NCBI GenBank assembly: GCA_043228905.1
Contig: JBHGNT010000016.1
Coordinates: 6,510,001 to 6,574,000 of the forward strand
Direction of reading: 5' to 3'
Length of the DNA: 64,000 nt
Source: Azolla caroliniana
Lineage: Eukaryota; Plantae; Polypodiophyta
Positions within the stretch are counted from its first letter, which is position 1, and each line of letters starts with the position of its first letter. Below are positions 8,875-63,631 of the stretch, piece after piece. Below the pieces are notes generated by a model. The model worked only from the letters and a program-made list of their open reading frames with translations, ran no database searches and was not told where the DNA came from. A program made the position numbers and the translations under genes.

Positions 8875-9074
8875 ACGTGAATTCTAATGGAATCGACACT
8901 CTAAGCATTGTCTAACTTCTAGGATCATTATTACATGAGAATAAAAGGATGACCAAACAACTTGTGTTTTCTTATGATTGATATGTCATCAATCATGATC
9001 ACTTCCAATAATACATAGATACCGTAAAGTCTTTTGTTCCATTATGTATATAATGAAAAAGTATGAATACTAAG

Positions 9075-24793: not shown

Positions 24794-24857
<64 letters not shown>

Positions 24858-25126: not shown

Positions 25127-25156
25127 AAGTGGTATCAGAGCGAAACGACACAGAAA

Positions 25157-26819: not shown

Positions 26820-27578
26820 TGTTGGGAGACAGGTCCCTCCGGATGGGAAGGGAGAAGAACAATGCTGATGAACAAACTCGGTCGATGCCGAAACCGGATG
26901 AGGAGTACCTGGCTACGGAGAGCCGGATGGTGCAGACCCGGTGAGAACCGGATGAGGAGTACTCGGCTACAAAGAGCCGGATGGTGCAGACCCGGTGAGA
27001 ACCGGATGAGGAGTACCCGGCTACGGAGAGCCGGATGGTGCAGACCCGATGAAGACCAGATCAGGAGTACCCGGCCACGGAGAGCCAGATGGTACAGACC
27101 CGGTGAGGAATGCTCACTGAATGAAGAGACATATTCGTAAATATGTTTCTGAGAGTCCATCGAGGCTATATTTGTAAATAGCCGAAAAGTCATATTAGTA
27201 TAAATATGACTTAGGGCAAACTTTTAGTTACCACTGTTGTTGTCATATTCTTGTTGGTGCAAGGATAGAGTGAGCGCGTAACTGTGTACAGAGAGAGAGA
27301 CAGAACGAGGTCGTTGCCTCCGTTGTAACCGTCGCTTGTGGCGAAGAACGTGAGCACGAGGTCGTTGCCTCCGTGAACTCACTGTTGTACATTATAACAT
27401 AGTGATAGTTTGCAGCCTGTGGGCTGTCATGGTTTTTCCCATAGTTTGGGTTTTCCACGTAAACATCCTGCGTACTCGTCTCTTCTTCGTGTCGTTCTTT
27501 ATTTCCTGTTTTTTGTGTATGATTCTAAGCTCGGTTGTGGCCGAGCGTTGCGTATAAGGAGCGTTGTAGTTCCTGTCA
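26820..27578 (+). repeat. Copia LTR2 (divergent subfamily)
   Basis: TGTTGGG...CCTGTCA; about four 54-bp units; differs from LTR1/LTR3 in diagnostic blocks. Confidence 0.9.
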
Positions 27579-27607
27579 AGTGGTATCAGAGCGAAACGAC
27601 ACAGAAA

Positions 27608-30600
27608 ATGGACAAATCGTTTGGCGGCATGTTCAAGCTCACCGGCTCCAACTATTCAGTGTGGAAGTTGAAGATGAGGGACATGCTCGTGGTTAAAGAT
27701 CTTTGGTTACCGGTTCAGTTCGGGGACAAGAGACCAGACAAAATCGACGCCACAATATGGGAGGTGATGCACATGAACACAACGGCGTACATACGGTGCT
27801 TCATCGACATGAGCCTATACAACAACTTCAATGAAGAGAGCAAGGCTCATGAGCTCTGGGAGAAGATTGACATTATGTTTCAAAACAAAAATGTTGTTAA
27901 TCAGGTTTCGGTATTCCGGAAGCTAGTAAGACTCCGGTACCAAGATGGCTCCAGCATGGCGGAGCACATGAATGCCTTCCAAGGGCTGATCCACCAGGCA
28001 AATTCATTGGAAGTACCTCTCGCCGATGAGGTACTAGCGCTACTCCTGCTCGGTTCCCTCCCGGATAGCTGGGAGACGTTGGTTGTCACTTTGGGCAACG
28101 CTGGGCCAGAAGGAAAACGGTTATCCCTAGCAAGAGTAAAGTCAAGCTTGCTAGATGAGGAGGCGCGTCGGAAAGATAAAGATATGAGCTCCGACCCCAA
28201 AGCGCTCCTTACCGAATCGGAACGCGGAAGACATAGAAAACGTAGTCCCTAGAACCGGGAGAAGTTGGGGACACGGTCAAAGTCAAGGGAAAGGCCTACT
28301 TGCTTCTATTGTTGCAAGCCGGGACACTTCGAAAAGAACTGTCGGCATTTCCGTAAAGACAAGGAAACCGATGGCACCGATTCGAAGCGGACACGGACCG
28401 GACCGGAAGGGAACAACGGCAATCGCGGCAAGTGAAGAAGAGTTGATGCTCATCACCAAGGAGAGTGAGATAAACCTTGCCGGCGACGAGATGACCTAGG
28501 TGGTAGACTCTGGAGCGTTGTTCCACCTTACCCCGGACTGGAAATGCTTCTCATTCTACGCAGCCGGAGATCACGACTGTGTCCGGATGGGGAATGAAGG
28601 TACATGCCGAATTGTCGGCATAGGAGACGTGTGGCTGTCAACACCAACCGGATGCAAGTTGCTGCTGAAGGATGTCCGACACGTTCCGGAGGTTCGTCTG
28701 AACCTGATATCAGCCGGTCGGCTAGATGATGAAGGCTACGCGGGTAGCATCCGGAACAGTGTCATGAGGTTCAGCAAAGGGAGCCTGATTGTGGCTCGGG
28801 CCTGGAAGGTCAACACACTGTACCTAATGAATGCCCGGTTATGTCTGGAAGAAGTGAACGTGGCATCCGACACTGCCGGTGAGTTGTGGCACAAGAGGCT
28901 GTGTCATATGAGCGAGAAGGGGATGAAGAGTCTTGCAGACGACAACCTCATTCTAGTGAAGAACGTGCACTTGGAGAAGTGCACTGATTGTCTGGCCGGT
29001 AAGCAAAACCGGACCTCCTTCCGATCAAGGCCACCAATGAGACGTATTGCACCACTGGAGTTGGTGCATACGGATGTGTGTCAAGTAGACACGAAGACAC
29101 ATGCCGGAGCGCAGTACTTTGTGACATTCATAGATGACCACAGACGGAAGTTGTGGGCCACACCGTTGATGACAAAGGACCAAGTGCTATCCGTCTTCAA
29201 AGAGCTCCACGCAAGAGTGGAAAGAGAAACCGGCCGGAAGCTGAAGGCGGTTCAAACAGATACCAGAGGAGAATACCGGGGGCAGTTCGAGGAGTACTAC
29301 CGCTCGAAGGGAATCCGGCTCGAATTTACCGTGCCGAAGACTCCGGAACTAAACGGACTGGCTGAGAGGATGAACCGAACCATAATGGAGAGGGTCCGGA
29401 GTATGCTGGCGCATGCAAAACTACCCAAGAAGTTTTGGGCTGAGGCACTGTCGACGGCGACATATGTGATAAACAGATCACCCTCAGTACCCTTGGATGG
29501 AGACACACCACAGAGAGTCTGGACCGGTAAGGAAGTGTCCTACCGGCATCTGACGGTATTCGGGTGTCTCGCGTACGTGCATGTAGCTAAGGACCGGAGA
29601 CGAAAGTTAGATCCAAAGACCCGACCATGCATATTCCTCGGTTACGGTGACGATGAGTTCGGCTACCGAGTGTGGGACCTGGTCGACAAGAAGGTATTCC
29701 GAAGTCGAGATATTATCTTCATGGAGGACAAGACGCTCGCCGATTGGGAGTTGGAGAAGAAGATAATGAACTCTGAGTCGACTGGTAAGGATCGATTCTG
29801 CGAGGAGCAGACCCAACCAGAAAGAGACCAGTTAGCACTCGAGGAACCAGCCGGTTACAGTGAGGATACCGGACCCGCAGAAGAAGAAGTAGAGGAAGCT
29901 GAAACCGGAACCGGCCAAGACCCCGAATCGGATTCGGATGAAGAGCAAATGGAGGAGCTGGCTACCGAAGCCCAAAGACAGAGATATCCTCTCAGAGAGA
30001 GAAGGCCCCCCTGGAGATTTCCGGATGCAGAGCATGTGCTGCTGACCGATGAGAGGGAGCTGGAAAGCTTCGAAGAAGCAAATGATGATACCCACAGCCG
30101 AAAATGGTTAAGTGCCATGCAAGATGAGATGGATTCCCTGCATGAGAACCGTACGTACGAATTGGTGGAGTTGCCGAAAGGAAGGCTGGCACTCCGAAAC
30201 AAGTGGGTGTACAAGTTGAAACCGGGAGATGCCGGCAACCCCCCGAGATACAAAGCTAGGATTGTGGTGAAGGGGTTCCAACAGAAGAAGGGCGTGGACT
30301 TCGACGAGATATTTTCCCCGGTAGTAAAGATGACCTCCATCCGGACGGTGCTGAGTATAGCGGCAAGCATGGACCTTGAGGTAGAGCAACTGGACGTGAA
30401 GACGACATTCCATCACGGCGACCTCGAAGAGGAGATCTACATGCAGCAACCGGAAGGATTCGTGGAGAAAAGGCAGGAGCACCTAGTTTGCCGGTTGAAG
30501 AAGAGCCTCTACGGACTAAAGCAGGCTCCCCGACAATGGTACCGGAAGTTCGATTCCTTCATGACCGATCAAGGGTACCACAAGACGCAGGCCGATCACT

Positions 30601-31608
30601 GCGTGTTTGTGAAGAAGTTCGAAGGAGGCGACTTCCTGATACTCCTTCTGTACGTGGACGACATGTTGATCGTTGGACGGGACCAAGCCAAAATACGAAT
30701 GCTGAAGAAGGCTCTCAACCGAACCTTCTCAATGAAAGACTTGGGTCTGGCAAGACAGATGTTGGGGATGCATATCATCTGGAACCGGCCAACGAGGCAA
30801 CTGTGGCTGTCATAGGAGAAGTACGTGACAAAGGTGCTTCAACGGTTCAACATGTCAGATGCGAAACCGGTCAGATCGACAATTCCGGCAAACTGCAGGT
30901 TATTCGGTAAGCAAAGCCCGAAGACGAAAGCAAAGAAGGCGGATATGATGAAGGTTCCATATGCCTCTGCCGTCGGGAGCTTAATGTACACAATGGTGTG
31001 TACCCGACCGGATATTGGATACGCAGTCGGAGTGGTGAGCTAGTTTATGAGCAATCCCGGCAAGGAGCACTGGAACGCGGTCAAATGGATACTTCGAACA
31101 TGTGTCTCTGATTCGGCTCCGGTAAACCTCAACTTGACGGTTTTACCGATTCAGACATGTCGGCTGATCTGGATACCAGTCGGTCTACATCCTGGTATGT
31201 AATGACATATGCAAGGGGAGCTGTTTCGTGGCAGTCGAGGCTGCAGAAGATGGTTGCGCTGTCAACCACGGAAGCAGAGTACATGGCGGCTGTGGAAGCC
31301 GGCAAGGAAATATTATGGATGAAGGACTTCATCGGAGAGCTCGGTATCCGGCAAGATGAATACTGGCTCTACTGCGACAGTCAAAGTGCAATCCACCTTG
31401 CTAAGAATGCGGCCTACCATTCCCGGACAAAGCATATCTAGCGAAGGTATCACTGGATCCGGGAAAGAGTAGATGACCAGGAGTTTGCGCTGACGAAGAT
31501 CCACACGGCCGAGAATAGGTCAGATATGCTTACCAAAGTACTGATACCCGACAAGTTGGATGCATGCCGGAAGCGGGTCGGACTAGTAAGACATCCCATG
31601 CTGGAGTG
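27608..31608 (+). pseudogene. Copia gag-pol (gag, PR, IN, RT, RH) with several stops and small deletions
   Basis: ORFs 27410..28252, 28500..30815, 30825..31043, 31157..31441; NGLAERMNRT, LYVDDML, HSRTKHI. Confidence 0.92.
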
Positions 31609-31619
31609 AAGGGGGAGTT

Positions 31620-32350
31620 TGTTAGGAAATAGGTCCCTCCGGATGGGAAGTGAGAAGAACAGTACTGATGAGCAAACTCGGCCGAGGCCTAATCGGATGA
31701 CGAGTACCCGGCTACGGAGAGCCGGATGGTGCAGACCCGGTGAGAACCGGATGACGAGTACCCGGCTACGGAGAGCCGGATGGTGCAGACCCGGTGAGAA
31801 CCGAATGACAAGTACCCGGCTACGGAGAGCTGGATGGTGCAGACCCGGTGAGAACCGGATGACGAGTACCCGGCTACGGAGAGCCGGATGGTGCAGACCC
31901 GGTGAGAACCGGTAGAAGAGACATATTTGTAAATATGTTTCTGAGAGTCCATCGTGGCTATATTTGTAAATAGCCGAAAAGTCATATTAGTATAAATGTG
32001 ACTTAGGGCAAACTTATGATTGTTGTTGTCATTCTTGTTTGTGCAAGAAAAGAGAGCGCGTAATTGTGTACAGAGAGAGAGAGAGAGACAGAGAGAGGTT
32101 GTTGCCTCTGTTGTAACCGCCGCCTGTGGCGAAGATCGTGAACACGAGGTCATTGCCTCCATGAGCTCACTATTGTACATTCTAACATAGTGATAGTTTG
32201 CAGCCTGTGGGCTGCCGTGGTTTTTTCCCTAGTTTGGGTTTTCCACGTAAACATCCTGTGTACTCTTCTCTTCTTTGTGTGGTGCATTCTTTCCCCGTTT
32301 TTCTATGTATGATTCTAGGCTCGGCTGTGGCCGAGTGTGAGTTCCTGTCA
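31620..32350 (+). repeat. Copia LTR3 with four 54-bp tandem units (~31695-31912)
   Basis: TGTTAGG...CCTGTCA; unit GGATGACGAGTACCCGGCTACGGAGAGCCGGATGGTGCAGACCCGGTGAGAACC. Confidence 0.9.
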
Positions 32351-33316: not shown

Positions 33317-36300
33317 TTTGCTTGTGTTCCAAAGATGACATGGCCTGTATTCTTTCTTCCTCTAATAGTAATGAGGCTTCTTTCCGAATTCGTTCCGACT
33401 ACAGTGCATTTAATTTTTCAGTTGCTTGTATTCGGAGTGTCGGAATCTAAAATTGTACTCGCATTACGGCTTCTAATCCGAAATCCATTCAGAGAGGAGT
33501 TGATTTAATAGATGTTTTATAAGACGTCCGATATGCCCATAAAGCACTCTGAAGCTTTTGATCCCAATCTGTACGATTTTCATTGACTATCTTTTTGAGT
33601 ATTGTCTGCAGTGTTTTATTTGTCGATTCTGCTAATCCATTTGCTTGTGGATAGTAAGTAGTGCTCTTTTTATGAACCACTGCGTAATATGTGGATAGCT
33701 CATGTACAATTTTATTAATAAAATGTGTACCTTGATCGCTTACTAATTCTATCGGACACCCAAATCGACACCATATATTTTCGTACAAATTTTTTGTTGT
33801 TTATGTTGTCGTATTGTCCCTGAGATGTTTAGCTTCTACCCACTTTGTACAGTAATCTATGGCGATTATGATGTAACGATTACTTCTGCGTATGGCTGCT
33901 GGTTTAAATGGACCGACAAAATCAAATCCCCATTTTTGAAATGGCTCCAAAGGCAAAACAGGTTGGAAAGGCATTCTGTCCTTTTCTGTGGGTTGCCCCA
34001 ATCTTTGACATAAATCACATTTTCAACAATAGTTCACTACATCCTTCATTATTGTCGGCCACCATAACCCATTGTTCCATATTTTTCGGGCTGTAGTTTC
34101 TCCGGCATAATGACCACCGGCAATACGACAATGAGATTCTCGCAGAATTATCGATTTCTCAAATTGTCGTACTGTCCTTCTCCAAATTCCATCTGCACCT
34201 TTATGATAGAGAGTATTGTTCAAAAAACAGAAATTTTGATTATGAACGGCTAAGCTTTTCCTTTTATCCACCGATAGATGCTCGGGTGGTAGCCCTGTTG
34301 TAAGACAGATTGTCATCTCCAAGATCCAAGCATCCTTGCCTTCCTCATTTATTTCTTGTACCCATACTGCTTCCACTCGAAAGAGTTGTCCATCCGGAAA
34401 ATCATCTGGCACACCTATGCCTTCTTCTCCCGACTCTAGTCGGCTAAGATAATCAACAATCACATGTTGTACTCCTAGCCGATGTAAAATGTCAAACTTG
34501 AATTCTTGCAGTAATAATGTCCATTGTGCTAGCTTACTAGTTAATTCTTGTTTAGAGACTAAATAGAGAAGAGCAGAATGATCGACATGGAATGTAAATT
34601 TCTTGCCCAAAAGGTAGTGGCGAAGTTTATTGATACTATAAATCATTCCTAACGCTTCCCTCTCGGTTGTTGAATAATTTCTTTCCGCTATCGAGAGTTT
34701 TCGACTAGCGTAATACACTGGTCTATACCAGTTTGGTTCGGATAACTACATAAGTGCACTGCCGATTGCTATATCAGATGCATCAACGAACACATGGAAG
34801 GGTTTATTCCAGTCAGGTCGTTAAACCACCGGAACTTTAGATAGCATTTTCTTGAGACACTCATAGGCATCCTGTTCCACACTTGTCCATTGAAAAGGAA
34901 CTTTATGCACCGTTGTGTGTAGAGGAATGGCAACATCTGCAAGATATCTAATCATCCTACTATGCCATCTAATCTGCCGCAAGAACCGACTAAGGCCCTT
35001 AGTGTTTGTAGGTGCTGGTGCTTCTAATATGGTCCTAACTTTGTTTGGGTCAACTGCAATTCCTTCTTGGCCGACAATATGGCCTAACAATGTCCCATTA
35101 GTAACTCTGAACGCGCATTTTGCCGGATTCAAGCTCAGCCGACCTTTCTGACATTGCTCCAAGCATAGTCGTAAATGTTCCCCATTCAGTAACGAAGGCT
35201 ATCTTTTCTTGATCCTCCGGATGCATCCTTACCTGATTATATCCACTTAATCCATCCAGGGAAGTGTACATTTCATGACCAGCGACTGCATCCGATATCC
35301 CATCCGTAAACGGTAATGGAAATGCGTTTGTTACTGTTGCTGCATTTAGTTTCTGATAGTCAACGCATACTCGAATTTTTCCATTCTTTTTCGGAAAAAC
35401 TACAATCATACTTAGCCATGTAGCTTTTTCTACCGGTCGAATAAACCCTACCTTCAGGAGTTTATCTATTTCCTCTTTAACTTTAATTGCATAATTAGAA
35501 TTTAAACGATACCTACGTTGTTGAACTGGTTTCGCATATTTATGCAGGTTAATTTGGTGTTGGCAAAAAGCCGGATCTAGCCCTTTCATGTCTTCAAAAG
35601 ACCAAGCAAAAACATCCTTATATTGGTTTAGTAACCCAAGTAACCTTTGTTTATCCGCCACTCTCATATCTTTAGCTACCAACACTATTTTTGGTTCAAA
35701 CCCCTTATCATCTTCTGCCAAATTTACTTCCTCCAATGCCGAAGCCTGAACCCATTGAGATACCTTCATTTCTCTTTCAGTAGCTTCCTGCTGCAATCAG
35801 ATTTCTTTCATTGTTTGCTCATCTAATGGTAATTCCTCTTGTGAATCCATGTACGGTGTCAAGGCTTGTAATATGTCTACTTCGAACAAAGGGATAATTT
35901 TTGGGTTATCATTAAAATAATGATTCTCTTCGACCTCATCTAGTCCTTCCATCATATTTACGGCCTCCGCATGAATTGGCAAACATTGTTTGCTCGTCGT
36001 AATCTTATTCTGAGTAGACACCCGGATTTTCGTCTTGCCTTTCCAGAATGTTAATAAATTCTGATTCCAAATTTGCTTAATATTAGCAGTTTTTAAGCAT
36101 GGTCGACCTAATAGCAAAGGATATGATCTAGGAGCTTCCAAATGACCATAACTACGGGCAATTCATTAGCTTGATTAATCTCATTAGCTTGGAGCATTTG
36201 GGACACATTGTTTTTATTTGCTTCTTCTACCCATTCCTTGGCTGCTTTCCGAACAACTTCCTAAATTTCCCACTCTGATTGTTTACTTTTACTTTTGGTG

Positions 36301-44095: not shown

Positions 44096-44349
44096 ATCCC
44101 TCACTTCTCTTTGTCTAAAAAAGGGACTCAACCAAACCACCAACAATCTTCTTCAATAGAAAGATGAACACATATTAGCCTACGACTTAGTTGAAAGTTT
44201 ATGTGGACTACTTCAACACATGCTTCATCTGCTACATTTTAACACAAAAATAACCATGATGCTCCAACAACTCTTTTCTTCAACATGTGTCGACTTATCC
44301 TTATGCAGGCTAACCAAAAGCAGATCATTGAAGACCTATACAGTCAAAA

Positions 44350-45283
44350 ATAGAATGAGTCTACTCTTCTCATCCCCTCATGAAATTATCTTCAACCCCA
44401 ACATCATCATCCCTCATCCTTATCAAGAAATAGAAGATGTGCTTCTTTTTCCACATCCACCCTCTCGTCAAAGAACACCAAAGGCTTGTACCTACAACAA
44501 ACAACATGAATATAGTATGCATATTCCCTCTTGAAAATATGCTTCAACCCCCGACACCATCTTCACTCATCAAAAAATAGAAAAGTTGCTTCTTTTTCCC
44601 ACATCCACCCTCTCTCTGATTAACAACGAAGGTCTGCACCTACAAAAAACCAAAATGAGTATATTGTCCTCATCCCCTTCTTAAAATATGCTTCAACCCT
44701 CGACACCATCTTCACTCATCCTCTTCAAGAAATAGAAAATTTGCTTCTTTTCCCACATCCGCCCTCTCGCCAATTAACACCGAAGGCATGTACATACAAA
44801 AATAAAATGAGTAAATTATCCTCATCCAACCCTGAAAATATTATTCAGCACCCAACACCATCTGAACATTCATCCTTATTAAGAAACATAAGATCTGCTT
44901 CTTTTTCCACATCCACCCTCTCGCGGATTACCGAAGGCCTGTACATACAAAAACAAAATGAGTATATTGTCCTCAACCCCTCCTGAAAATATCCACCCTC
45001 TACACTCATCCTTCATCAAGATACAAAAAGATCAATTTCTTTTTCCACATCCACCCTCTTGTTGATTAACGTTGAAGGCATGTACATACAAACAAGCAAC
45101 ATGAGTATAATGTCCTCATTCTCTCCTAAAAATATGCTTCAGCCCCCGACACCATCTTCAATCATTAAAAATAGAAAAGCTGCTTCTTTTTCCCACATCC
45201 ACCCTATTGCTAATTAACACCGAAGGCCTGTACATACAAACATGCAACATGAGTATACTGTCCTCATCCCCTTCTTAAAATAT
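44350..45283. repeat. ~150-bp tandem array, six units plus a partial one
   Basis: ATGAGTATA...CCTCATCC and CCACATCCACCCTCT recur; unit starts near 44355, 44506, 44654, 44806, 44957, 45100, 45249. Confidence 0.9.
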
Positions 45284-45738: not shown

Positions 45739-45808
45739 GGGGACTTGAGAAATTAGGGTTTTAGAAATCTTGGGACTTTCAGGGTTTTGGGGTTTTAGGG
45801 TATCAGGG

Positions 45809-46263
45809 TATTATAGATCATAGTACTAATGTAAGCTTAAGATAAGGATAATGAAAAGATAGATAGAAAGGAGAAAGAGAAAGAAGGGTGCCGATCCACC
45901 CGACCACCCCCGAGCGAAGGGATCGAGACGGACTCGAGCCTCGATCGGCGTCCCATACCACCGCCGTGGCGTCGAGTCGTACCTGGTGCTGGCGCGCTCG
46001 CTACAAGAGTTGACCCACCACACGAGCAGAGTCTCGATGTAGTCAAAAGATCCTCAAATGAGGGTAGCTAGGCCTCTTATTTATAGCGAAACCCAAGGCC
46101 CCCAGGCAAGTTCACACTTGACCTAATGGGTTGTCTCAATCCCGAGGATTAAAAGTAATCCTCCCCTTCTTTACACTCTCCTTTAACCCTCACACTTATC
46201 CACGTGTATAGAATACTACGGTAAATTCTTACCACGGGATATTATATGGTCATGCCCGTAACA
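45809..46263 (-). repeat. Chromovirus 3' LTR
   Basis: Element-strand termini TGTTAC...ATAATA; direct repeat of 52370-52824. Confidence 0.96.
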
Positions 46264-49200
46264 TACTCCCCCTCTTTAAAACATTGCACTCTTGCAATGG
46301 AAAGTTAGGGAAGTTAGTTCTAAGTGTATTTTCGCGTTCCCATGTGGCATCTTTTATTGATTTATCCATCCATTTTATTTTGAATTCTCGGATTTCTTTA
46401 GTACGTAATTTTTTTGTTTTAACATCGAGAATTCTTTCTGGTACATGTGGTTTAGAAGATAATTCTTCAGAAGTAACCAGAGTTTCAGTCATAACTGTAT
46501 TGTCGCCAGAACCTAGAAGTTCTTTTAGACGACTCACATGAAAGACTGGATGAATTCCGACACCATCGGGAAGAGCGAGACGATAGGCTGATGACCCAAT
46601 GCGTTTGAGGACTGTAAAAGGTCCACAAAACCGTGGGGCTAACTTAGCGCACTTACCCATAGACAATGTCTTAGAATTGTGAGGTACACGTAAAAATACC
46701 TTCTGTCCAGGGTTGAATACACGAGGTTGCCTATGATGATCGGCATAAAAACGCGCTCTATCTTGAGCTGTTTTTATATTATCTCGTGCAATATGCAACA
46801 TATCTTGCATATCCTGAAGAAAGTTTTGCGTACTTCGCAACTCATCATGATGTATAGTAACATCAATCGGGGCTCGTGGCTGAAAACCATACATCAACAT
46901 AAAAGGACTATATCCCGTCGACGTATGCTTGGAGCTGTTATAAGCAAACTCCAAAATTGGGAGATAACGTTCCCATTTTGTTGGTTTTGCACCAACGTAT
47001 GCTCGAAGCATGTCCTCAATAATTTGATTTACTCGTTCTGTCTGTCCATCGGATTGAGGATGATCCGTGGAGCTCATGCTCAACGTAGTTTCTAACTTCT
47101 TAAAGACCTGCGTCCAGAAGTCACTAGTAAACTTTGGATCTCGATCACTCACGATATCCATCGGTAACCCATAAAAACGAAACAATTCGTCAACGAATTG
47201 GTAAGCCAATTCAGGAGCTGTTACCGTGGTTTTAGTAGCAATAAATCTGGCCATTTTAGTTAGTCGATCAACGACAACCCAGATGGCATCATGACCTTTT
47301 TGGGTGCGAGGAAGGCTAACAATAAAATCCATGGATATACTTTCCCACTTATTATTGGGAATGTCCAAGGGATGTAAAAGTCCTGCGACTTTAAGTCGCT
47401 CGGCTTTGTTAACCTGACACTGGTGACATTTAGTCACATAGCTATGTATGTCAGGACGCATCTTAGGCCAATAAAATTGAGTGGAGATGAGAACGAGTGT
47501 ACGATGTATTCCAGGGTGCCCTGCTGAGGGTGCATCATGGCATTCAAAAAGAATCCTCTTTTTGACCTCGGGTAAATCTGGAACACAAACCTTCCCATTA
47601 CGGTAGAGCAAACCGTTAGCAATGTGGAAGTATTCCTTCGAGGATGTGGTGGTGTCTGTTCCAGACTCAACTCTTGCCCAGTATTTTGCGAAATAACTGT
47701 CATCAGGATACTTTCCTCGAAGGTGATCATAAAGATCTGATGATATTTCAGTGAAGCTAAGCGTGTTAACTTCACGGATGCGACTTAGTGCATCAGCGAC
47801 AGTGTTCATGGAACCTTTACGATATCGTATGGAAAAATCAAAGTCCTGGATGAGATCAGCCCATCGTCCCTTACGACCTTTCAGGTCTTGTTGGTCACAA
47901 AAATATTTCAAGGACTCGTGGTCCGTAGTTACCACAAAGTGATTTCCATAAAGATAATGGCGCCATGTTTTGAGCGCATGTATAACTGCAAATAATTCCT
48001 TTTCTTGAACGGTATACCGACATTGAGCAGAATCAAGTTTCTTACTCTCGAATGCTATCGGTTTACCATCTTGATACAAGACAACACCTATAGCGTAATC
48101 GCTGGCATCGGTTTCAACCTCAAAAGGTTTTGAAGGATCGGGTAAAAGAAGTGAAGGAGCCTTGCAAACCAGGTCCTTGAGTTCCGTAAAGGCAAGGTCT
48201 AGTGTAGCATTCCACACAATAGGTTTTGTAGACTTACGCGTTTGACCTTTTAAAAGATCAGTAAACGGTGTCGTCAATTGGGAGTAATTACGAAGAGACT
48301 TTCGCAAAAACCCCACAAAACCAAGGAATGATCGAACTTCTCGAATATTCCGAAGAGTGGGCCAAAGCTTGATTTTCTCAATGCGAGAAGGATCAATTTC
48401 AACTCGTTCGGTTATGAGATGTCCTAGATAAGTAATTGATTTCTTGAAGAACTCACATTTTGAGATCTTCGCATAAAACTGTTTGTCACGCAATGTTTGT
48501 AAAACAAAGCGGACATGTCTAGCATGTTCTTGTAATGTACGGCTATAAACTAAAATATCATCCAAGAAAATAACGACAAATTTTCCAAGTTGTTCTCGGA
48601 AAATGTCATTCATTTCTTGTTGAAAAGTAGCCGGAGCATTGGTCAAACCAAAAGGCATAACCAAAAACTCGTAATGGCCATAGCGCGTACGAAATGCCGT
48701 TTTAGGAACATCGTCCTCACTTATTCGTATTTGATGGTAGCCAGTACGGAGATCAAGTTTCGTAAAATACCGAGCTCCCTGGAGACGGTCAATTAGATCG
48801 TCAGCCCGGGGCAATGGATACGAATTCTTGATCGTCACTTTATTCAAGCGTCGGTAATTAATACACATACGCCATGTGCCCTCTTTCTTTTTAACCAAGA
48901 GAACTGGTGCACCCCATGGAGATTTACTATAACGTATATAACCCATTCGTAAATAGTCCTTGAGTTGCTTAGATACCTCATCTTCTTCGGATCGACTTAA
49001 GCGATACGGAGGTATACTTATTGGTGCAACACCAGGTACAATATCTATACGATGGTCTATATTACGTTTAGGAGGTAACCCATCAGGTAGTTCACTTGGA
49101 AAAACATCATGAAAATCATTTAAGATTTCATCAAGTTGTTGTTGTTCAAAATATGTTAATTGAATCGGGACATTATCGATATTGTAAACGTGAATGTCCG

Positions 49201-50680
49201 GATCAAGTACACAATAAAATAACGTAGAACAAGACAACTCGGATATTGATGGACACGAGGAAACAATCGAGAGGGATTGTTTTTTTACACATTGAATAAA
49301 ATGCGTACAATCGTTCAGTACAAAAGAAATGGAATGACGAACCCAATCAATAAATAAAGAAGAGTTTTTATTATAAAACCAGGGATAACCCAGTATTACA
49401 TCGGTGGTACAAAGATTCATTACATGGAAGTCTACTTCCTCTATATAAGTATCAATAGAAATTCCTAATGAATGAATCGCCCCGTTGATGTATTGTACTC
49501 TTCCATCAGCCAAGTGCACCGTGTAGGTGTGATCACTTACGGTGGGTTGGATTCCCCATATCTGAACCAAACGATCATTCACAAAATTGTGTGAGCTTCC
49601 CGAATCAAATAAAAATTGTACGGGAGATCCATTGATATACCCGTTTGCACGTAGTAAATCATTGGGACCCAATACATAGTGAGGGAAAGAACATTGACAA
49701 TTACTTAAATGATGTGTATAGACCTGAAGGACATTAGGAATCTGACCTTTATGGTCTGCAGCTTTAGCTTTGTTGTCGTGCTCTTTCCGTTGGAGCTTTC
49801 GACATTGATCTTTTGTATGACCCTTCTTTTTGCAGAATACACAAAAAGGATGTTGTCGCTTACAATCGCGATCCAGGAATTCGTTGGGTGTCTTGCGTTT
49901 CCCAACAAATTGCGACTGCTTAGTCCCGGGCGCTTCGTTGGGTTTGTTATGGTCCTTCTTCGAAGTGCGTTGATAGCGAAGAACTATTTCAACGGCCTCT
50001 TCGAAGGATTTTGGATCCTTATCGTGCACTATCCAGTGATAGTCCGAATTGGGGATGCCATTGACAAAACAAGCTATCAACCAATTGTCCCCTTCTAGAC
50101 CCGATTTTTGGATTTGGGTTCTAGCATGGTGAACATAGTCTTCTAGCGAGGAAAATTTCCTGCTAGAGAGGTTCATTAAAGCTTGTGCTGCCTCGGTTCG
50201 AGAGGGAGGTTGCAGAAATTGGCCCTTAAAAACCGTGACAAAATCTGTCCAGGTATCGGGCAATTTCCCCATAGTACGGAGGCCACGCCACCAGGCGGCG
50301 GCCTTACCCCCGAGTTCTCGGCCGACATATGCAATCTTCGTACTATCTGGCGTGGGATAGAGCTCAAAATGAGACTCCCATCATCCCAGCCATGTGCAGA
50401 TTGCTTCTTCGGTTCTTTCCTTTTTGTCTCCCGTAAATGGCTTAACGACAAATGATGGTTCACCTTGTCGCTCATCAGGTCTATTAGTCTCACGTTGTAG
50501 GCTAATGACACGTGCCTCAAGAGCACTCTGAGATTGCCGAAGTTCGGTCATCTGTTGAGCGGTGAAACTAAGGAATTGGGTTATTTGTGCCAAATACATC
50601 TCAGTGGACATTTGTCCAGGAGGATTCCCTTGAGTTCCTTCCGCTTGAGCGGATGACATCGGGTCGTTAATTTGAGCCAT
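46250..50680 (-). CDS. Single-frame gag-PR-RT-RH-IN-chromodomain polyprotein with one in-frame TGA at 50381-50383
   Basis: ORFs 50381..50680 and 46250..50272 are in the same frame; [48 protein letters not shown]...IKW...ATWE; stop lies 14 bp inside the 3' LTR. Confidence 0.92.
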
Positions 50681-50692
50681 TAAAGATTATTT

Positions 50693-52253
50693 CTGGAAAA
50701 GAAATAGGATAAGGTCAGAGATATAGTCATAACATCGTGTCGTGATGTAAACATATCATGAGCGAGCATTAATCGATATCATTATCTCACGTCAATACCC
50801 CTCTAGACGTATGAGATGAGGTTCAAGATCAGGTTACTATGGTAACACAAAGGTGTTTTAAAAACCATGGGGGTGACAAATAAATGTCTTTCCCTGATCT
50901 CTATATCGATTTTTTCATGGTGGCTCCCCGAGGCTCAACCATGTATGTTCGCGTCATGAATAGTTTATACACGAAAAAAAAAATGTTAACAATAAACTAT
51001 GTTTCGGTGCCCACATAAGTGGTTTCGGCTCTTTAAGTCCTATTACGAGGACCCCGAGGTGCACTTAGACCTTAAGTCTAAACATGTGTTATAGTCATAT
51101 GTATCAAGGATGTTGTATGGTCTTGGTCATATTTGAACTCGAGACCTCGAGAACAAATACATTAAACACTTGAGCCAACCAAGTAAGTTGCTCTTCTCGA
51201 ATGCTTAATGTTTGATGCGTATAAGAGATATGCGAGGCAATTGATCATATACGTTTTTTTAAAAGAACATATATGTCAAGGGTCCTTATTTCGCCCTCAT
51301 TTACCAACACTATGTTGGTACGTTACCTAACCTCAAGTCTCGTAATTACGATGGCATATGTCAAAGGGCAACCTAATGGTCAAGCCAAATGAGCCCTCGT
51401 TTCGTAGTAGGCTCACGTGGGCCATCACATGGTCACGTCATTACGAATGCCTCTCGTAAGAACGAGCTCATGGTGGCATCGTATCCATGTAACGAGGGAA
51501 GGATGTTGGATACGTGCGTCATTGGAGCGACCTCACTTGAAGTGGGTCAAGCCCTACGTACTCAACATCATTATGGCTATTGCGTTTCTTTACGTAACGA
51601 AATCGAGGTCATCAACGGGGTTGTCAACAATAAAAAATTGTTGAAAAAGGAATGGTGACAACGCCATTCTCACAAAAATGTGAGGACGGCCACCAACATC
51701 CTTTTCCCGACCATGACAACTTTCGACATAATCACGTAATAACGAATATACACATATGGTTACTTATCACATATATACGATCAAATACGTATATATGTGA
51801 CCACATATGCCTATATTCAACATATCGTTATAGTAAATAGCCACAAATGATGTGATCGAGATACGTAATCGAGGTATATACCTCTACGCACACGAAACAT
51901 CCACAAATAAGAGATCATCGTAATACGCAATGGAGGTATTGACCTCTTACGCATACGAGACCAAACGCATATCGTTTACAACAAATTAAGGTATTAAACT
52001 CATACGCAAACGTAACATATGTTCGTGAACGTAATACGTAATTGAGGTATTAACCTCGTACGCATACGACACTCATCACATATTATTAATATGTCAAACG
52101 AGGTATTGACCCCGTGCACATATGTAAACGTTTTAGATAATCAATTAAAGACCACTACAACATCATTGATTTAATGAAAAAAATTACATATAAACTAAAC
52201 ACATGATTAGATGGGAGAAGAGAGAATAGAAAAAAAAATATGGAAAGAGTTAC
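50693..52253 (-). other. Hairpin-dense leader region, candidate 5'-UTR intron and structured cis-acting RNA
   Basis: Donor-like CG|GTAACT at 52253; CTGAC + pyrimidine tract + CAG ending 50693; more than a dozen inverted repeats between; function inferred. Confidence 0.55.
51857..52125 (-). repeat. Array of five stem-loop units with GAGGT-N4-ACCTC cores
   Basis: Cores at 51871, 51933, 51988 (degenerate), 52044, 52100; spacing 62, 55, 56, 56 bp. Confidence 0.85.
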
Positions 52254-52369
52254 CGAAGTTCTTTGTTGATCGTTGTCTGGATCAAGGCCAACCGCACAAT
52301 GATCGATCAGCATCAATCAAAAGACAAATGAAAAACAAAGAAACATTAGTAAAAAAATCTGATACCAAA

Positions 52370-52824
52370 TATTATAGATCATAGTACTAATGTAAGCTTA
52401 AGATAAGGATAATGAAAAGATAGATAGAAAGGAGAAAGAGAAAGAAGGGTGCCGATCCACCCGACCACCCCCGAGCGAAGGGATCGAGACGGACTCGAGC
52501 CTCGATCGGCGTCCCATACCACCGCCGTGGCGTCGAGTCGTACCTGGTGCTGGCGCGCTCGCTACAAGAGTTGACCCACCACACGAGCAGAGTCTCGATG
52601 TAGTCAAAAGATCCTCAAATGAGGGTAGCTAGGCCTCTTATTTATAGCGAAACCCAAGGCCCCCAGGCAAGTTCACACTTGACCTAATGGGTTGTCTCAA
52701 TCCCGAGGATTAAAAGTAATCCTCCCCTTCTTTACACTCTCCTTTAACCCTCACACTTATCCACGTGTATAGAATACTACGGTAAATTCTTACCACGGGA
52801 TATTATATGGTCATGCCCGTAACA
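52370..52824 (-). repeat. Chromovirus 5' LTR
   Basis: Adjacent to PBS; TATA-like CTATAAATA on minus strand. Confidence 0.96.
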
Positions 52825-52829
52825 CAGGG

Positions 52830-53020
52830 GTTTAGGGTCTTTGGAAATCGGAAATCGGAGCAGAGGTTTTGTTTTCTACGGCTGATGATTAGGTTTTAGG
52901 GTTTTAAGATTACGATTAATGGTGCAGATCTCTCTCCTCTACATACATACATATAATATGTATACTTCTACTGCAGGCCTATTGTGTGTTCTCCCTAGGG
53001 TTAGGGTTAGGGTTAGGGCT
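52830..53020 (-). promoter_or_regulatory. Telo-box-rich probable 5' UTR/proximal promoter of the aminopeptidase fragment (continues in 45739-45808)
   Basis: Several AAACCCTA/AACCCT motifs on both sides of the chromovirus TSD, directly upstream of the fragment's first codon. Confidence 0.5.
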
Positions 53021-53266: not shown

Positions 53267-55060
53267 AGTGAGCTTTTAAAATGGACAAGGTACATACTTG
53301 TCATTGTATAATGACAATTATAAGGCAAGTTATAAAGCAAATGATTGGCTTATGAATTGGATTAAACCAATCTTTAAAGCTGGAGTAAAGAAAAGTATCA
53401 AATTATCGTACAATAATGTGAGCTCAACTATTGCTAAATTATAAAGCACTACTATGGAGTAAAAGATAAGCACATGGGTTGAAAGTACAAGCAAAAGAGC
53501 ACTTGGGCAAGCAGGATTTAGACCAAAACACTCCATCGTGGACCATTTGGTCACATTGAGAGTAATCATGGAAGAGAGTTGACTACAAGAAAAAACACTT
53601 TATTGTTGTTTTGTTGATTTTAAGAAAGCTTTTGATACCGTACCACGAATTGAGCTTTGGAATAGAATGCTAGAGATTGACATGCCATTAGAGTACCGAG
53701 TTGTTGTTGCATGCCTATATGAACAAGTTAAATGCCAATTAAAAATGGACAGTGGATTCTCAAAGAACTTTTTAAGTAACATGGGGGTCAAGCAAGGATG
53801 TCCACTATCACCCACACTCTTTGGCTTATGTATTGATAAATTAGAAGAAGTGGCGAAAAAGGTTGAGAAGAGAAGAAGGATTGAATGCCCCTAAATTGAT
53901 GCAATGTGTTATCTTATTGCTTTTATATGCAGATGATGTGGTACTCTTCTCATATGATGCGGATAGTATACAACATTTACTTGGGGTATTAGAAGAACTT
54001 TGCCATAATAGTGGACTAGGAGTGATTGTGGAGAAAACAAACATGATGGCAATGCAAACCATCCAACCCTATCATTACCCTATGCTCACATAATAGAGGT
54101 GAACATATACAATTTGTTCAAAGCTTTAAATATCTTGGTATTGATGTACCCACCAAAAATAAATGGAGTACATGCATTGAATCTAGGCTTAAACCGGTTA
54201 GAGATTGTATTACCTTTTGGAGAACCAATGCAACCAAAGTGATACTTGTGGATGGGAAGTAAAACTAATGTTGTTCAATGACATGGTAACTCAAGTATTG
54301 CTTTATGGAGTAGAAGTATGGCGTGGCACCATCTCTCTTAATGCATGGAATGAGATTGAGAAATGTCAAAAGATGTTTTTATGGAGACAATTAGGAGTTA
54401 CAGGTTATGCTCTTGGAAACATGTGTTCGGCCCATAGAGATATTGGCACTCCAAAGGGTATATAGATACATTACAAAAGTCAAGAATATGCATTATGTAA
54501 TGATTGAGGAAAGGTTGGTGGAATCATTAAGGATGAAATGGGAAGATGCTAAGAGGACAAAGCTAGAATATTACATTGTAAATGTCAACCCTGAATGTTG
54601 GTCTCAATATAAGGCAAGAATGCCTATTGATCATGTCCGACATTATCTCATTACCAATATGAGTAGTAATGCTCGTAGAGCCCTCACACTACTTCGCACT
54701 GGATCTCACAAGTTAGGCATTGAAGTTGCATCATGGTATCAAAATGTAACAAATTTGAGGGCATGTAAAGTATTCAATGAAGGTATAGTAGAGGATGAAT
54801 GTCACTTGCTCTTCACATGCTCGACATTGCTATTGGTTAAAGATATGATGACATATAAGTGGCATACTTAAGACACCGCCTATAAGGTTGAGCTCATATG
54901 AGCATGCCTTATTCATGCATGGAGACATTGTGCTTCAATGTATGAATACCCCTTTTTAGGAAGGGGACACATATCAAGAACACATGTATAGTCTGGTCCC
55001 ATAGCTAAGGTAAAAAATTGGCCTCTTTATGGACGATAAAAATTCTAATTCTAATTCTCT
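53267..55060 (+). mobile_element. Second copy of the RTE-X-like LINE
   Basis: Near-identical ORF fragments 53667..54871. Confidence 0.8.
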
Positions 55061-57341
55061 CTCTCTCTCGTGTCCAACCCTGCTACATAACACTTCTTTA
55101 CGAGAGATCTTTGCATTGTGAGATAGATCCTTGATTAGTTCTACGCAAGTAATACAACCTTGGTACATAATGTTTCTATAAAACATTGCAACCAATTCCA
55201 ACATCCTAGTTATTAGACTTTCATTTTATCTAGAAATTTAGGTTTCACACCATAATAGTCGACACAATAACATTGTTTTCCTGATGCAATGTAACACGTG
55301 GACATCATTAGAAGAAATTACAAATTGTTTTCAACTTTCACATATTTAAGCTTGAGTTTCAATCTTGAATGGGAGTATTTTTGTAGCCTAAATAAACTCA
55401 TGGCGATGATTAATATAAGGATCATGCATTGTCTTTCAGAATTCATTTTGAGTTGCTCATAAAAACATCATGAAAACACAAGAATGAAACAGTTCCTACT
55501 AGAAACATGCGAGTTAGAATCATGGTGACTTAAACTAACAATATTATCTAAATGATGCCAAGAAATATTTAGTTCTAAAAATACAATATTTTATACTAGA
55601 TAACGTTGTACTTTTAGCTTTAAAGACAAGCAACTTTACCTAGTGAATATTTTTTCTATACATAATGTTGAACAAAGCATCGTTAAGGTCATCTTTGCCA
55701 AAAAAACATTTCTATACTAATGAGATACTACCATTACCGCCTAATCGTTTAGGCGCCCAACCCATAAGCGCAACTACCCACTTGCAAGGACACATGCCCT
55801 CCATCATTGGTGCTAAAAAATATGTTTACTTAAACACTTATCTTAGTGGCATGAAACCATGGTGTTCCTTGAAAATACTAACAATAATAATCTCACATTA
55901 TAGCTGGAGGCATCAGACTATGGTGCTCAAAGGTCTTATGGCCTACATTGAAACTTATGTCCTCAAAGAGAATAAGCATTTTCCAATGGCCCAATGAGAT
56001 ATTTTCATATTGAGTAGTTTTGACGCATCAATTCCTTGACCAACCTATGGCACTATAAGTGTGCTAAAAATGATTTTGATACCAAAGAAGGTTACTTTAA
56101 ATCACATATTTATTGTTGTAACTTTTCTATGGGAGTATCACTCATGTTCCTAATATTTAACTCTTTATTGTATATTGGTCAAAAGCCTATGTTTGAATGT
56201 ATGTGAAAGCATCATATCACATTCCTAACTACTATATGTTATTGATAATATTATCTTCAGTTGCCAAATCAAAGTGCCAACTAACTAAATATTGATCAAA
56301 TGGGCAATGAAAAATACAAATGGTGCCTTTTAGGAAGGGTGGTCATACCAACTTTTAATGATACAAGTTATTGTGACTAGATACTATTGAGATTGTTTGT
56401 AGAAGGAGATGTGTGTTACTTTCTCTATAAAGAGAGGAATGTGGCCAATGAGACCAAACCAATGTGTTGTATGCTTTCTTGATAAATGAAAATTAACATA
56501 CAATAAATAGAGACACTAAAGGTAAAATTGTTCATGTTGATGCATGCTAAGCTTTATTGGACATCTCATGTCTTATGTTCTATCGTGCTTGTGGAGTCTC
56601 GACTTAGGCCTTTGATGCTCCCTAATGGTAGCTTAATGTTTGTGCCTCATTAGTTTCTTAGATCTTTCAAAAGGAATCCATTTAACTAATCTCAATTGCC
56701 TCAAATATACTCAATTTGGGCTTCATAATTTGTGCATGTGGCATATTTATATTTAACGTGTTATTTTGTATACACTTCAAAAAAGGCTATAATTTGAAAC
56801 AACCAAACTTTTGTTTGATCAACAAAAACCCAAACGAGACTAAGGAATCTTTATCGGCATCATGTATCACATGGACCCATGGGATCGTTACCATCATGTT
56901 TAACAATGTGAACCTCTGATCTTTATGAAATATTGTTTGATCTATCAAAACACAACATAGAGATAGGGGTTGGAACAAAACCCTAGCGAACAAAATGCAC
57001 TATCATTTTGTCAACAAAAGTAATGTAACAATGTAGCACTAGCTTATAGTAACATCATAAGATATTAACTTGCACTATCATTTTGTTGACAAAAGTAACA
57101 CAACAATGTACCACTATCTTATAGTAACATTGTAAGATATTAAACGTGAATTCTAATGGAATCGACACTCTAAGCATTGTCTAACTTCTAGGATCATTAT
57201 TACATGAGAATAAAAGGATGACCAAACAACTTGTGTTTTCTTATGATTGATATGTCATCAATCATGATAACTTCCAATAATACATAGATACCGTAAAGTC
57301 TTTTGTTCCATTATGTATATAATGAAAAAGTATGAATACTA

Positions 57342-58695
57342 ATATATATATATATATATATATATATCCAAAAAAAACTCCTTCCATTAGTTATAAATTT
57401 TTACAAATGAGACAATTATGTACAAATGTCTGTAGGGACGCGATAGTTCCATCTTATGTGGATGCCCATTGACTCAAGAAAGGGAGAGGACAACCATTGT
57501 TGGATGAAGGCTATTTCGTTGTCTTTCAAATCCATTGGAGCTGCCCTTGAGGCCATCATATTGGCTCTTTAGAGTGGCTACAATTTCACACCATATCTCT
57601 TATAGTAACCTTGTTGGATGCGCAGTTTGGTTGGAGAAGACCCGTCTACATTGTTGTTTCCATAGAATCCAAAGAGTTATTGGGTTGACCAATTCCAACA
57701 CAACTTGAGATTTGTCATTAAGAGGAGTTGAGTGGACATTGCCGCTGGTGGCAAAAAAAACCTCTTGTGCTTTTATCACCAAAGTCATCCCCTCCTCTTG
57801 ATGCTCGTATCTGCCAAATGGGATCTGCCATGATAGCCAACATATATTTCCCCACTTGATTGAGTCTTGCACCTGGCATAATTGCAACAAGTGGCCAAAC
57901 CCCCGCCATATTCGATGAGATGCTAGGCAATCCCACAAAGAGTGTCATATTGATTCTATTGCATTTGGGCACTCTACACAATTAGGAGAGCTAAGGTTCC
58001 CACTTTGCCATGCTCCCACCGGTAGGGACTTATGGATTAATAGCCATTGGAACGTGGTAATTCGCCTCGCGTGTTGTTGTTTCCAGATTTTCTGCCAAAA
58101 CTTGGTGATAATTGTGGGAGGAACTTGAAATGTGTGCCAGACCTTCGCAGCAGCTGGCTCTTGGGCGGTTTGAGGAGCTAGAATGTGGCTACCCAATCTA
58201 GTTGTGAATTGGAAGAAAGGGATGGGTTTGCTTCCTTCCCCCGCATAAGGATCACGCTATGTCCATTGCAAAGGGTTCCAACTGACCTTACGTAGCCATG
58301 TGTTTTCATGAGTACATATGTGCCAATCGGGTTGTACTTTGATCGAATCCTGATCTACAATCCATTTATGACCAGTATACCCAAGTACGATTGGGGCTCA
58401 CTAGCGATGGAGGATTTTGCGACTGTGGAGTTTTAGGTAGGACATGGGATTTCCCCACCACTCGCCATTCCATCACAGCCTTATCAGGGCGTGGTGGGGG
58501 AGGCTTTTGATTTCCTATGGTGTCCCGACCATTCAAGGTCTCCATGGTGGGATCCTTAATGCGTCTCGTGGGGCAGTTCTTTTTAAAATGACTGGAAGCT
58601 TTTTGCATGCAAAACATTGTCACGGTGCGCTGATCACTTCAATGCGTTGTTCAATCTGTATTCCGTTTTCCCCTAGAATGAGGATCTTGTGTGAA
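57342..58695 (-). mobile_element. Second copy of the L1 with most of ORF2 deleted
   Basis: ORF1 tail fused to the zf-RVT region at 58387-58388. Confidence 0.85.
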
Positions 58696-61150: not shown

Positions 61151-63631
61151 TTTGCTTGTGTTCCAAAGATGACATGGCATGTATTCTTTCTTCCTCTAAC
61201 AGTAATAAGGCTTCTTTCTGAATTCATTCCGACTACAGTTCATTTAATTTTTTAGTTGCTTCTATTCGGAGTGTCGGAATTTGAAATTCTACTGGCATTA
61301 CGACTTCTAATCCGAAATCCATTCGGAAAGGAGTTGATTTAATAGATGTTTTATAAGACGCCCGATATGCCCATAAAGCACTCTGAAGCTTTTGATCCTA
61401 ATCTGTACGATTTTCATTGACTATCTTTTTGAGTATTGTCTGCAGTGTTTTATTTGTCGATTCTGCTAATCCATTTGCTTGTGGATAGTAAGGAGTGCTC
61501 TTTTTATGAACCATTGCGTAATATGTGGATAGCTCATTTTATTAATAAAATGTGTACCTTGATCACTTACTAATTCTATCGGACACCCAAGTCGACACCA
61601 TATATTTTCGTACAAATTTTTTGCTGTTGATGGTGTCGTATTGTCCTTGAGATGTTTAGCTTCTGGTTATGATGTAACGATTACCTGTGCGTATGGCTGC
61701 TGGTTTAAATGAACCGACAAAATCCAATCCCCATTTTTGAAATGGCTCCAAAGGCAAAACAGGTTGGAAAGGCATTCTATCCTTTTCTGTGGGTTGCCCC
61801 AGTCTTTGACATAAATCACATTTTCGACAATAGTCCACTGCATCCTTCATTACTATCGGCCACCATAAGCCATTGTTCCATATTTTTCGGGTTGTAGTTT
61901 CTCCGGCATAATGACCACCTACAATACCACAATGAGATTCTCGCCGAATTATCGATTTCTCAAATTGTTGTACTGTCCTTCTCCAAATTCCGTCTGCACC
62001 TTTATGATAGAGAGTATCGTTCAAAAAACAGAAATTCTGACTATGAATGGCTAAACTTCTCCTTTTATCCGCCAATAGATGCTCAGATGGTAGCCCTGTT
62101 GTAAGACAGATTGTCATCTCCGAGATCCAAGCATCCTTGCCTTCCTTATTTATTTCTTGTACCGGTACTGCTTCCACTCGAAAGAGTTGTCCATCCGGAA
62201 AATCATCTGGCACACCTATGCCTTCTTCTCTCGACTCTAGTCGGCTAAGATAATCAACAATCTCATCATGTACTCCTGGCCGATGTAAAATGTCAAACTC
62301 CAATTCTTGCAATAATAATGTCCATCGTGCTAGCTTACTAGTTAATTCTTGTTTAGAGACTAAATAGAGAAGAGCATAATGATCGACATGGAATGTAAAT
62401 TTCTTGCCCAAAAGGTAGTGGCGAAATTTATTGATACTATAAATCATTCCTAACGCTTCCCTCTCGGTTGTTGAATAATTTCTTTCCGTTGTCGAGAGTT
62501 TTCGACTAGCGTAATACACTGGTCTATACCAGTTTGGTTTGGATAACTGCATAAGTGCACTGCCGATTGCTATATCAGATGCATCAACGAACACATGGAA
62601 GGGTTTATTCCAGTTAGGTGGTTGAACCACCGTAACTTTAGATAGCATTTTCTTGAGACACTCATACGCGTCTTGTTCCATAGTTGTCCATTGAAAAGGA
62701 ACTTTATGCACCGTTGTGTGTAGAGGAATGACAACATCCACAAGAAATCTAATCATCCTGCTATGCCATCTAATCTGCCCCAAGAACCGACTAAGGCCCT
62801 TAGCGTTTGTAGGTGTTGGTGCTTCTAATATGGTCCTAACCTTGTCTGGGTCAATTGCAATTCCTTCTTGGCCGACAATAGGGCCTAACAGTGTCCCATT
62901 AGTAACTCCGAACGTGCATTTTGCCGGATTCAAGCTAAGCCGACCTTTCTGACATTGCTCCAAACATAGTCGTAAATGTTTGAAATGTTCCACTTTCAGA
63001 CTATATACGGCAAAATCATCTAGGAAAACTTGCATAAATGCAGGAATGTATTCCACAAAGATTTCCTGTATAACCCTTTGAAATGTGGCCGGAGCTGTTT
63101 TTAATCCGAACATCATTACTACTGCCACAAATACTCCCCATTTAGTAACGAAGGCTATCTTCTCTTGATCCTCTGGATGCATCCTTACCTGATTATATCC
63201 ACTAAATCCATCCAGGAAACTGTACATTTCATGACTAGCGACTGCATCCGATATCCCATTCGTAAACGGTAATGGAAATGCGTCCGTTACTGTTGCTGCA
63301 TTTAGTTTTCGATAGTCGACGCATACTCAAAATTTTTCATTCTTTTTCCGAACAACTACAATCGGACTTAGCCATGTAGCTTTTATTACCGGTCAAATAA
63401 ACCCTACCTTCAGGAGTTTATCTATTTCCTCTTTAACTTTAATTGCCTAATTAGGATTTAAATGATACCTGCGTTGTTGAACTGGTTTTGCATATTTATG
63501 CAAGTTAATTTGGTGTTGCCAGAAAGCCGGATCTAGCCCTTTCATGTCTTCAAAAGACCAAGCAAAAACATCCTTATATTGCTTTAGAAACCCAAGTAAC
63601 CTTTGTTTATCCGCCACTCTCATATCTTTAG
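61151..63631 (-). pseudogene. Second copy of the Athila-like pol (RT-RH-IN)
   Basis: ORF 61656..63227 retains MMFGLKTAPATFQR and VFLDDF. Confidence 0.88.

Follow-up and report, generated by a model that had tools for sequence, protein, structure and literature searches.

In foamy viruses the splice donor lies upstream of the primer-binding site (PBS). Their Pol is translated from a spliced RNA (PMC7828637), and retroviral Gag is made from unspliced RNA (PMC5035971). Around the retroviral major splice donor and packaging signal, as with the foamy virus pol mRNA, splicing strips messages of cis-signals that stay in the unspliced genome (PMC7828637). In plants, LTR elements generally lack introns, Ogre and EVADE excepted, and export of their RNA had not been studied directly, according to a 2025 review (PMC12786077). 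The splicing that yields short Gag messages in EVADE and Ty1/copia elements (PMC5580714) and the Ogre intron (PMC6317226, PMC12786077) are functional and partial; these introns are found within coding regions or between them and determine the Gag:Pol ratio. Arabidopsis Ty3 elements are reported to have no conserved splicing features (PMC5580714), and sunflower elements splice within coding regions (PMC7730604). BARE1, a Ty1/copia element with two TATA boxes and an intron in gag, has separate RNAs for translation and replication (PMC3735527). With the export elements musD MTE and IAP RTE, unspliced RNA requires a structured cis-element with pseudoknot-like contacts (PMC12786077).

Here we analyse a Ty3 chromovirus in a 64,000-nucleotide stretch of Azolla caroliniana DNA, referred to as the window. 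As in retroviruses and foamy viruses, cis-signals retained in its unspliced genome would be missing from its spliced messages, with the difference that the whole gag-pol frame, Gag included, is predicted to be read from spliced RNA. The proposed division of RNAs between translation and replication recalls BARE1, but would be made here by leader splicing. The introns would be functional and partly spliced like those of EVADE and Ogre, whereas their place is the leader and the coding frame is unaffected by them. No description of leader introns spanning the PBS in a Ty3 chromovirus was found in the literature searched, outside which fell most subscription papers and bioRxiv supplements.

Results

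The window element and its family

The window element (Table 1) has LTRs, a target-site duplication, a PBS, a polypurine tract and the domain order PR-RT-RH-IN, with a chromodomain at the integrase C-terminus (PF00385, 28.8 bits; cut-off 25.1). Its PBS is presumably of the tRNA-Met type, and the motif TGGTATCAGA(GC) stands immediately 3' of the LTR in subfamilies A and B and in family C. The window copy of gag-pol is interrupted by one in-frame stop near 50380. The element belongs to a young, high-copy Ty3 chromovirus family: in genome G000 (523 Mb), 39 among the 42 matches listed cover the leader in full at 97–100%, and the start of exon 3 has 385 exact matches. Gag and pol share one frame, of 1479 codons in many copies, and leader splicing leaves a Gag excess unexplained. 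The subfamily is young and abundant even though its LTRs end in TG..TA, not TG..CA (52370, 45809), and its PBS has 10 nt.

Table 1 Features of the chromovirus and its leader, in window coordinates
Feature	Position	Strand	Remarks
Ty3 chromovirus		-	7.0 kb; carries the 1.56-kb leader module
5' LTR	52370..52824	-	455 bp; identical to 3' LTR
3' LTR	45809..46263	-	455 bp; polypurine tract ahead of it
Target-site duplication	52825-52829 and 45804-45808		CCCTG, 5 bp
TATA box	52639..52646	-	aligns with the family C TATA box
Leader exon 1, in LTR	52544..52616	-	no AUG; 5' end assumed; loose X3/X5 contig ends match L121:498-527
Intron 1, likely	52277..52543	-	267 nt, GT..AG; takes out rest of R/U5, LTR end and PBS
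PBS	52358..52367	-	10 nt in window copy; 12 nt in subfamily B and family C
Microexon	52254..52276	-	23 nt (24 nt in L121 and family C); no AUG
Intron 2	50693..52253	-	1561 nt, GT..AG, 39% GC, 51 AUGs
Array of five degenerate units	51860..52130	-	55–62 nt each; four shown folding as a hairpin, GAGG..CCTC-type apex; family A/B only
AT-rich multibranch domain	51565..51853	-	listed in the initial annotation; stable, yet among the least conserved parts
Structured core	50784..50943	-	160 nt; conserved across families
Branch-point-like CTGAC, pyrimidine tract, CAG acceptor	50693..50718	-	CTGAC at 50718-50714
gag-pol, single frame	46250..50680	-	Gag with CCHC knuckle, PR, RT, RH, IN, chromodomain

Moss Tcn1 chromoviruses and the Physcomitrium elements RLG1 and RLG2 are likewise high-copy, chromodomain-bearing Ty3 elements (PMC6317226, PMC2864245, PMC7466625). 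The window RT has neighbours in mixed plant, fungal and chordate Ty3 clusters of the Atlas. Inspected by eye in five proteins, at positions that we take from HP1, the chromodomain aromatic cage is not intact, Trp alone being retained. The cage is reported to be present in 95% of Tcn1 members, and most members to be without a tRNA-complementary PBS (PMC6317226). The window element, which has a tRNA-type PBS and no intact cage, is therefore not assigned to the Tcn1 clade. Identity with RLG1 or RLG2 was unsupported as well: the published forward primers of both fail to match the window, the published transcripts having been compared over the first 400 letters of each.

Other repeats surround the insertion. 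A 148-bp tandem repeat of 6.4 copies (44330-45283) lies about 500 bp past the 3' LTR, and telomere-like repeats (TTTTAGGG, TAGGGT) lie on both sides of the element (45777-45813, 52830-52900 and 52996-53018). The window also holds a long duplication with 93–99% identity, its parts 48.2 kb apart (about 5000-9800 and 53270-58100), and Ty1/copia-type coding pieces at 24800-32350, among which 54-nt units are tandemly repeated (26838-27161 and 31583-31960). Other Ty3-type RT/RH/IN pieces (11400-14900, 33470-35660 and 61700-63610) are just 25–33% identical to the pol of the window element.

Splicing of intron 2

The initial annotation had proposed a sense-strand intron from 52253 to 50693 with GT..AG ends. 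The donor GT begins at 52253 and the acceptor AG ends at 50693, 12 nt ahead of the gag ATG at 50680; the CTGAC, polypyrimidine tract and CAG on which the proposal drew are present in the window sequence, giving the GT..AG ends, branch point and pyrimidine tract of a U2-type intron. A CTRAC or similar motif followed by YAG 8–14 nt upstream of the ATG recurs in L069, L070, L072-L074, L078 and L079. The donor is GT in 63 of 66 matched copies, 11 matches ascribed to a gag look-alike having been set aside.

Transcript data came from four runs (X3, X5, X7 and X9) of a relative, organism B, with RNA status as guessed by the tool. As reference we used L121, the copy closest to the organism B elements, which shares 27 of the 29 X3 variants. 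A joint that links L121 positions 838 and 2404 and leaves out 1565 nt bounded by GT..AG was found in X3 (depth 7.2) and X5 (depth 8.4), two samples of one study, as contigs rather than reads and with a joint side of 26 letters. It is the equivalent of the 52254-to-50692 junction that the initial annotation had named as its check. X7 and X9 gave no such joint against L121, which they cover patchily. One X3 contig spans the unspliced acceptor (L121:2322-2433, depth 9.1), and spliced and unspliced forms therefore coexist in that sample. With the four runs aligned to the window itself, to which the relative is about 92% identical, no intron 2 junction appeared among the joints listed; one contig stops one base before the acceptor.

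The genome itself also contains copies from which intron 2 is absent. A genome-wide pattern for the exon 3 start without the acceptor upstream gave a single match, of 385 exact starts. In L064, an LTR element, 52254 is joined directly to 50692 and intron 2 is precisely missing. The donor-side pattern matched four times, at L064, at L068/L145, and at L066 and L067, the last two of which were rejected as intronless copies, neither aligning to the element. L068/L145 also lacks the intron and carries an additional A at the join. Because L064 and L068/L145 differ by 3.8% and have none of their private variants in common among 62 rows, they represent separate events; the closest copies that still have the intron differ from them by 1.2% and 2.8%. 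A target-site duplication was not confirmed at either. Intronless copies numbered 0 against 179 in subfamily B and 0 against 179 in family C, where the sole pattern match is a mutated acceptor with the intron still in place. With the joint in two of four runs and the two intronless copies in agreement, intron 2 is, with high confidence, a spliceosomal intron removed at exactly the predicted sites.

A probable intron 1, the microexon and the upstream AUGs

The original proposal was that splicing yields a short-leader gag-pol mRNA. Intron 2 is indeed spliced, but its removal alone leaves the PBS and four upstream AUGs. With the transcription start assumed about 30 nt downstream of the TATA box, near 52616, the leader has 55 upstream AUGs unspliced, 4 without intron 2 and 0 without both introns. 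Removal of intron 1 as well would thus give an AUG-free, PBS-less message.

The transcript evidence for intron 1 consists of loose contig ends in two of the four runs. In X5 and X3, contigs over the 24 bases preceding the intron 2 donor continue upstream, with ends before L121:808 that match L121:498-527 at 30 and 22 letters, and the matched LTR stretch stops 8 nt short of a GT in the LTR; the 30 LTR letters in X5 are what is expected of a 31-mer graph fork at the LTR donor. Intron 1 is listed as a loose end and not a joint, its LTR part falling outside the L121 stretch used. The two sides have six of eight letters in common, so that a template switch is a possible source. Of the matched copies, 49 of 50 keep the GT and 62 of 63 the AG, and the microexon has the lowest mismatch of all regions (1.25% over 80 copies). 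L146, considered as a copy without intron 1, was rejected: it carries a deletion within the LTR and no join to the microexon. From the loose ends and the family comparison below, we consider it probable that intron 1 is removed by splicing and that the microexon exists as drawn. Family C shares with family A the conserved G-rich LTR motifs within intron 1 (window 52452-52524).

Family C belongs to the same genome, and its Gag is 55% and its RT 82% identical to those of the window element. Its GT and AG dinucleotides align at the same places, with a predicted first intron of 259 nt (GT..AG) and a second of 1.4–1.6 kb, and its predicted layout of 84–87/259/24/1625–1628/8 nt has exons without AUG. 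Of 27 matched copies, 20 have AG at the last acceptor, six have AA and one has AT; AA also occurs in a metagenome contig (L077). The change may reflect either methylation decay or the movement in trans of acceptor-dead copies. Family C loci (L083-L110) fall into intron 2 length classes about 83 nt apart (1375, 1460, 1542 and 1625) through copy-number change of a 5' repeat, and another 49-nt repeat is also found in L078.

Folding of the leader

The leader had been described as non-coding, about 1.7 kb long and full of inverted repeats. The distance from PBS to ATG is about 1.68 kb, with no ATG-started sense ORF longer than 52 codons. The perfect 13-bp stem (51788-51800/51767-51779) is present; the minimum-energy fold contains the long-range helix (51836-51853/51565-51581), its 8 bp and 9 bp separated by a 1-nt bulge; and the five named hairpins fold at -4.7 to -7.7 kcal/mol. 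Against 24 dinucleotide shuffles, the whole of intron 2 folds with z -17.5 on the sense strand, better than the shuffles as had been anticipated, but the antisense strand reaches -14.3 and an equally long pol control -9.1. Among 150-nt windows, the main signal lies in 51325-52149, where nine of ten have z of -2.3 to -4.9; those in 50650-51174 are weak (+0.1 to -1.5), and some in pol reach -5 to -6.4. The label 'highly structured' is thus correct for the 5' and middle part, though the folding is not as exceptional as it looks. The coding stretches 48550-48699 (sense-strand z -6.4), 49900-50049 (-5.3) and 46675-46824 (-5.1) may contain further cis-structures.

The array of five units, which the initial annotation did not list, lies within the strongly folding 51325-52149. 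The AT-rich domain, by comparison, has an identity of 0.78–0.88 per 100 nt to 10 subfamily B copies and does not align to family C. The hairpins named in the initial annotation are lineage-specific; the conserved part is the 160-nt core.

For covariation within subfamily B we used 10 copies of 21 tried, the other 11 being dropped for missing ends or length. Of the 704 sites paired with confidence, 76 carry shared substitutions, as do 79 of the 419 unpaired ones. Six pair types are compensatory, 35 are kept after a change on one side and 37 are broken, and slid controls of 89–169 pairs give 0–1 compensatory. Three of the six compensatory changes lie in the five-unit array. These changes lend modest support to a large intron fold.

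The conserved core

The part of the leader shared most widely is the core. Elements with a Gag 37–55% identical to that of the window element have cores that are 79–84% identical. In L077, L078 and L079 (Gag 55, 37 and 46%), leader similarity to the window is limited to 50943-50784, while L074 (Gag 59%) shares 51064-50783 at 73%. Between the window and family C introns the core alone is well aligned (82% over 165 nt, E 7e-41). Four of 13 metagenome relatives combine a diverged Gag with enough upstream sequence, and all four have the core. L071 (Gag 58%) has none in its 751 upstream bases, and in L070 the core is partly overwritten by a duplication. Across 80 copies the core mismatch is 1.43% and that of gag 2.15%, as raw values with base composition left as is. 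A natural deletion scan took in 80 of the 385 copies, 60 of full length and 20 with breaks that are each at a single locus (two adjacent loci share one); dispensable leader parts could therefore not be mapped from deletions.

The predicted layout comprises a hairpin bearing an invariant G-rich loop, a covarying 9-bp helix that closes a junction with a palindromic arm, CCATGG/TTTTAAAA, and a terminal hairpin with a second G-rich loop. Many unpaired bases around these short helices are invariant. Of 394 cells in ten sequences, 96% are paired under the 40-pair structure derived from the window copy, against 31–49% for slid versions. Two-sided changes occur in five of the 40 pairs, four of them in the 9-bp helix, and the covariation score was reached by none of 500 shuffles; the covariation comes from about five lineages and lies in helices 3 and 4 only, and shuffles of this kind can be outscored by related sequences. 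The core may form a pseudoknot between a C-run and its first G-rich loop, which are 92% paired without two-sided change. Folded alone, the core is modestly stable (sense z -0.6 to -2.8 in nine sequences, antisense similar).

Database and pattern searches placed the core in no described group. Rfam gave two weak miRNA matches far below the gathering score for the window and none for five relatives; scans for a hammerhead core and a simple HDV-like descriptor gave no match; the core pattern occurred once in the window and not at all in viral contigs; and searches with L078 and L074 brought up no further family in genome G000. Two X3 joints, L121:726-1844 and 1727-1988, have non-canonical ends, and both deletion forms would retain the 3' core.

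Discussion

The core is conserved and structured, and it is present in unspliced RNA only. We propose a splicing switch that separates an AUG-free gag-pol mRNA from an unspliced genome in which the intron core would act as packaging signal, and give this reading a probability of about 0.62 at most. The doubly spliced RNA, whose leader of about 108 nt would lack both AUGs and the PBS, would be translated and not reverse-transcribed. The unspliced RNA, keeping PBS and core behind 55 AUGs, would be copied and poorly translated. The core would bind the Gag nucleocapsid through its G-rich loops and dimerise through its palindromes, with the proteins acting in trans on unspliced RNA. That the core is a genome-fate signal for packaging appears most likely by analogy with retroviruses, because of the G-rich loops, the palindromes and the CCHC knuckle in Gag. 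L064 and L068/L145 indicate at least occasional copying of RNA that lacks intron 2; such copies may come from rare RNAs that lost intron 2 and kept intron 1, or from recombinants. Loss of the PBS alone can explain why spliced copies are rare, and their rarity thus does not decide on a packaging role.

The main rival to packaging accepts the same splicing switch and gives the core a part in nuclear export or splice retention that would allow a fraction of the RNA with introns to escape, in the manner of the musD MTE or IAP RTE. The core ends 90 nt upstream of the acceptor and 1.4 kb from the PBS, an unspliced RNA with two introns has to be exported, and the possible pseudoknot would have a counterpart in the MTE, described as pseudoknotted (PMC12786077). 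The likeness is a predicted one of structure and role, with no Rfam match to link the core to these elements, and G-rich loops and palindromes suit nucleocapsid binding equally well; the two roles are moreover compatible. We consider export or retention as the core's role unlikely, while giving it far more weight than the rivals below. An internal ribosome entry site for making Gag from unspliced RNA would account for a core that, in four of five lineages under comparison, precedes the gag AUG by about 100 nt and follows dozens of upstream AUGs. It is improbable, since the predicted AUG-free spliced message removes the need for one and several AUGs stand between core and gag start.

Slightly more improbable again is that cryptic sites are spliced incidentally and that the core is a DNA element, for example an enhancer or internal promoter. 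In X3, cover extends over the intron's 3' third and hardly reaches its 5' part, the acceptor is lost in 7 of 27 family C copies, and core folding is weak and strand-symmetric; set against this, four splice sites and a 23–24-nt microexon are retained between families whose introns do not align, and the compensatory changes in the core include G-U pairs on the sense strand. Least credible is a core that forms a self-cleaving ribozyme of an undescribed kind, or an excised intron that persists as a stable non-coding RNA. The many invariant unpaired bases by short helices and the lack of a matching Rfam family would fit such RNAs, but the ribozyme scans were negative, cleavage would destroy the genome RNA, and neither X3 nor X5 shows intron-only accumulation.

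The splicing switch with a packaging core can be put in a stronger form, which we place a little below even odds: all proteins would come from the doubly spliced RNA, and the genome would be picked in trans through a new family of 160-nt pseudoknotted RNAs. If the proposal is true, a precisely delimited packaging or export signal would exist in an LTR retrotransposon lineage with none described, and trans-mobilisation would be implied as the rule for these families. In plants, little work has addressed how LTR-retrotransposon RNA is divided for translation and for replication, and by which RNA signals the genome is chosen. The exact junctions, the natural intronless copies and the short covarying core make packaging, export and translation each testable with leader-only reagents.
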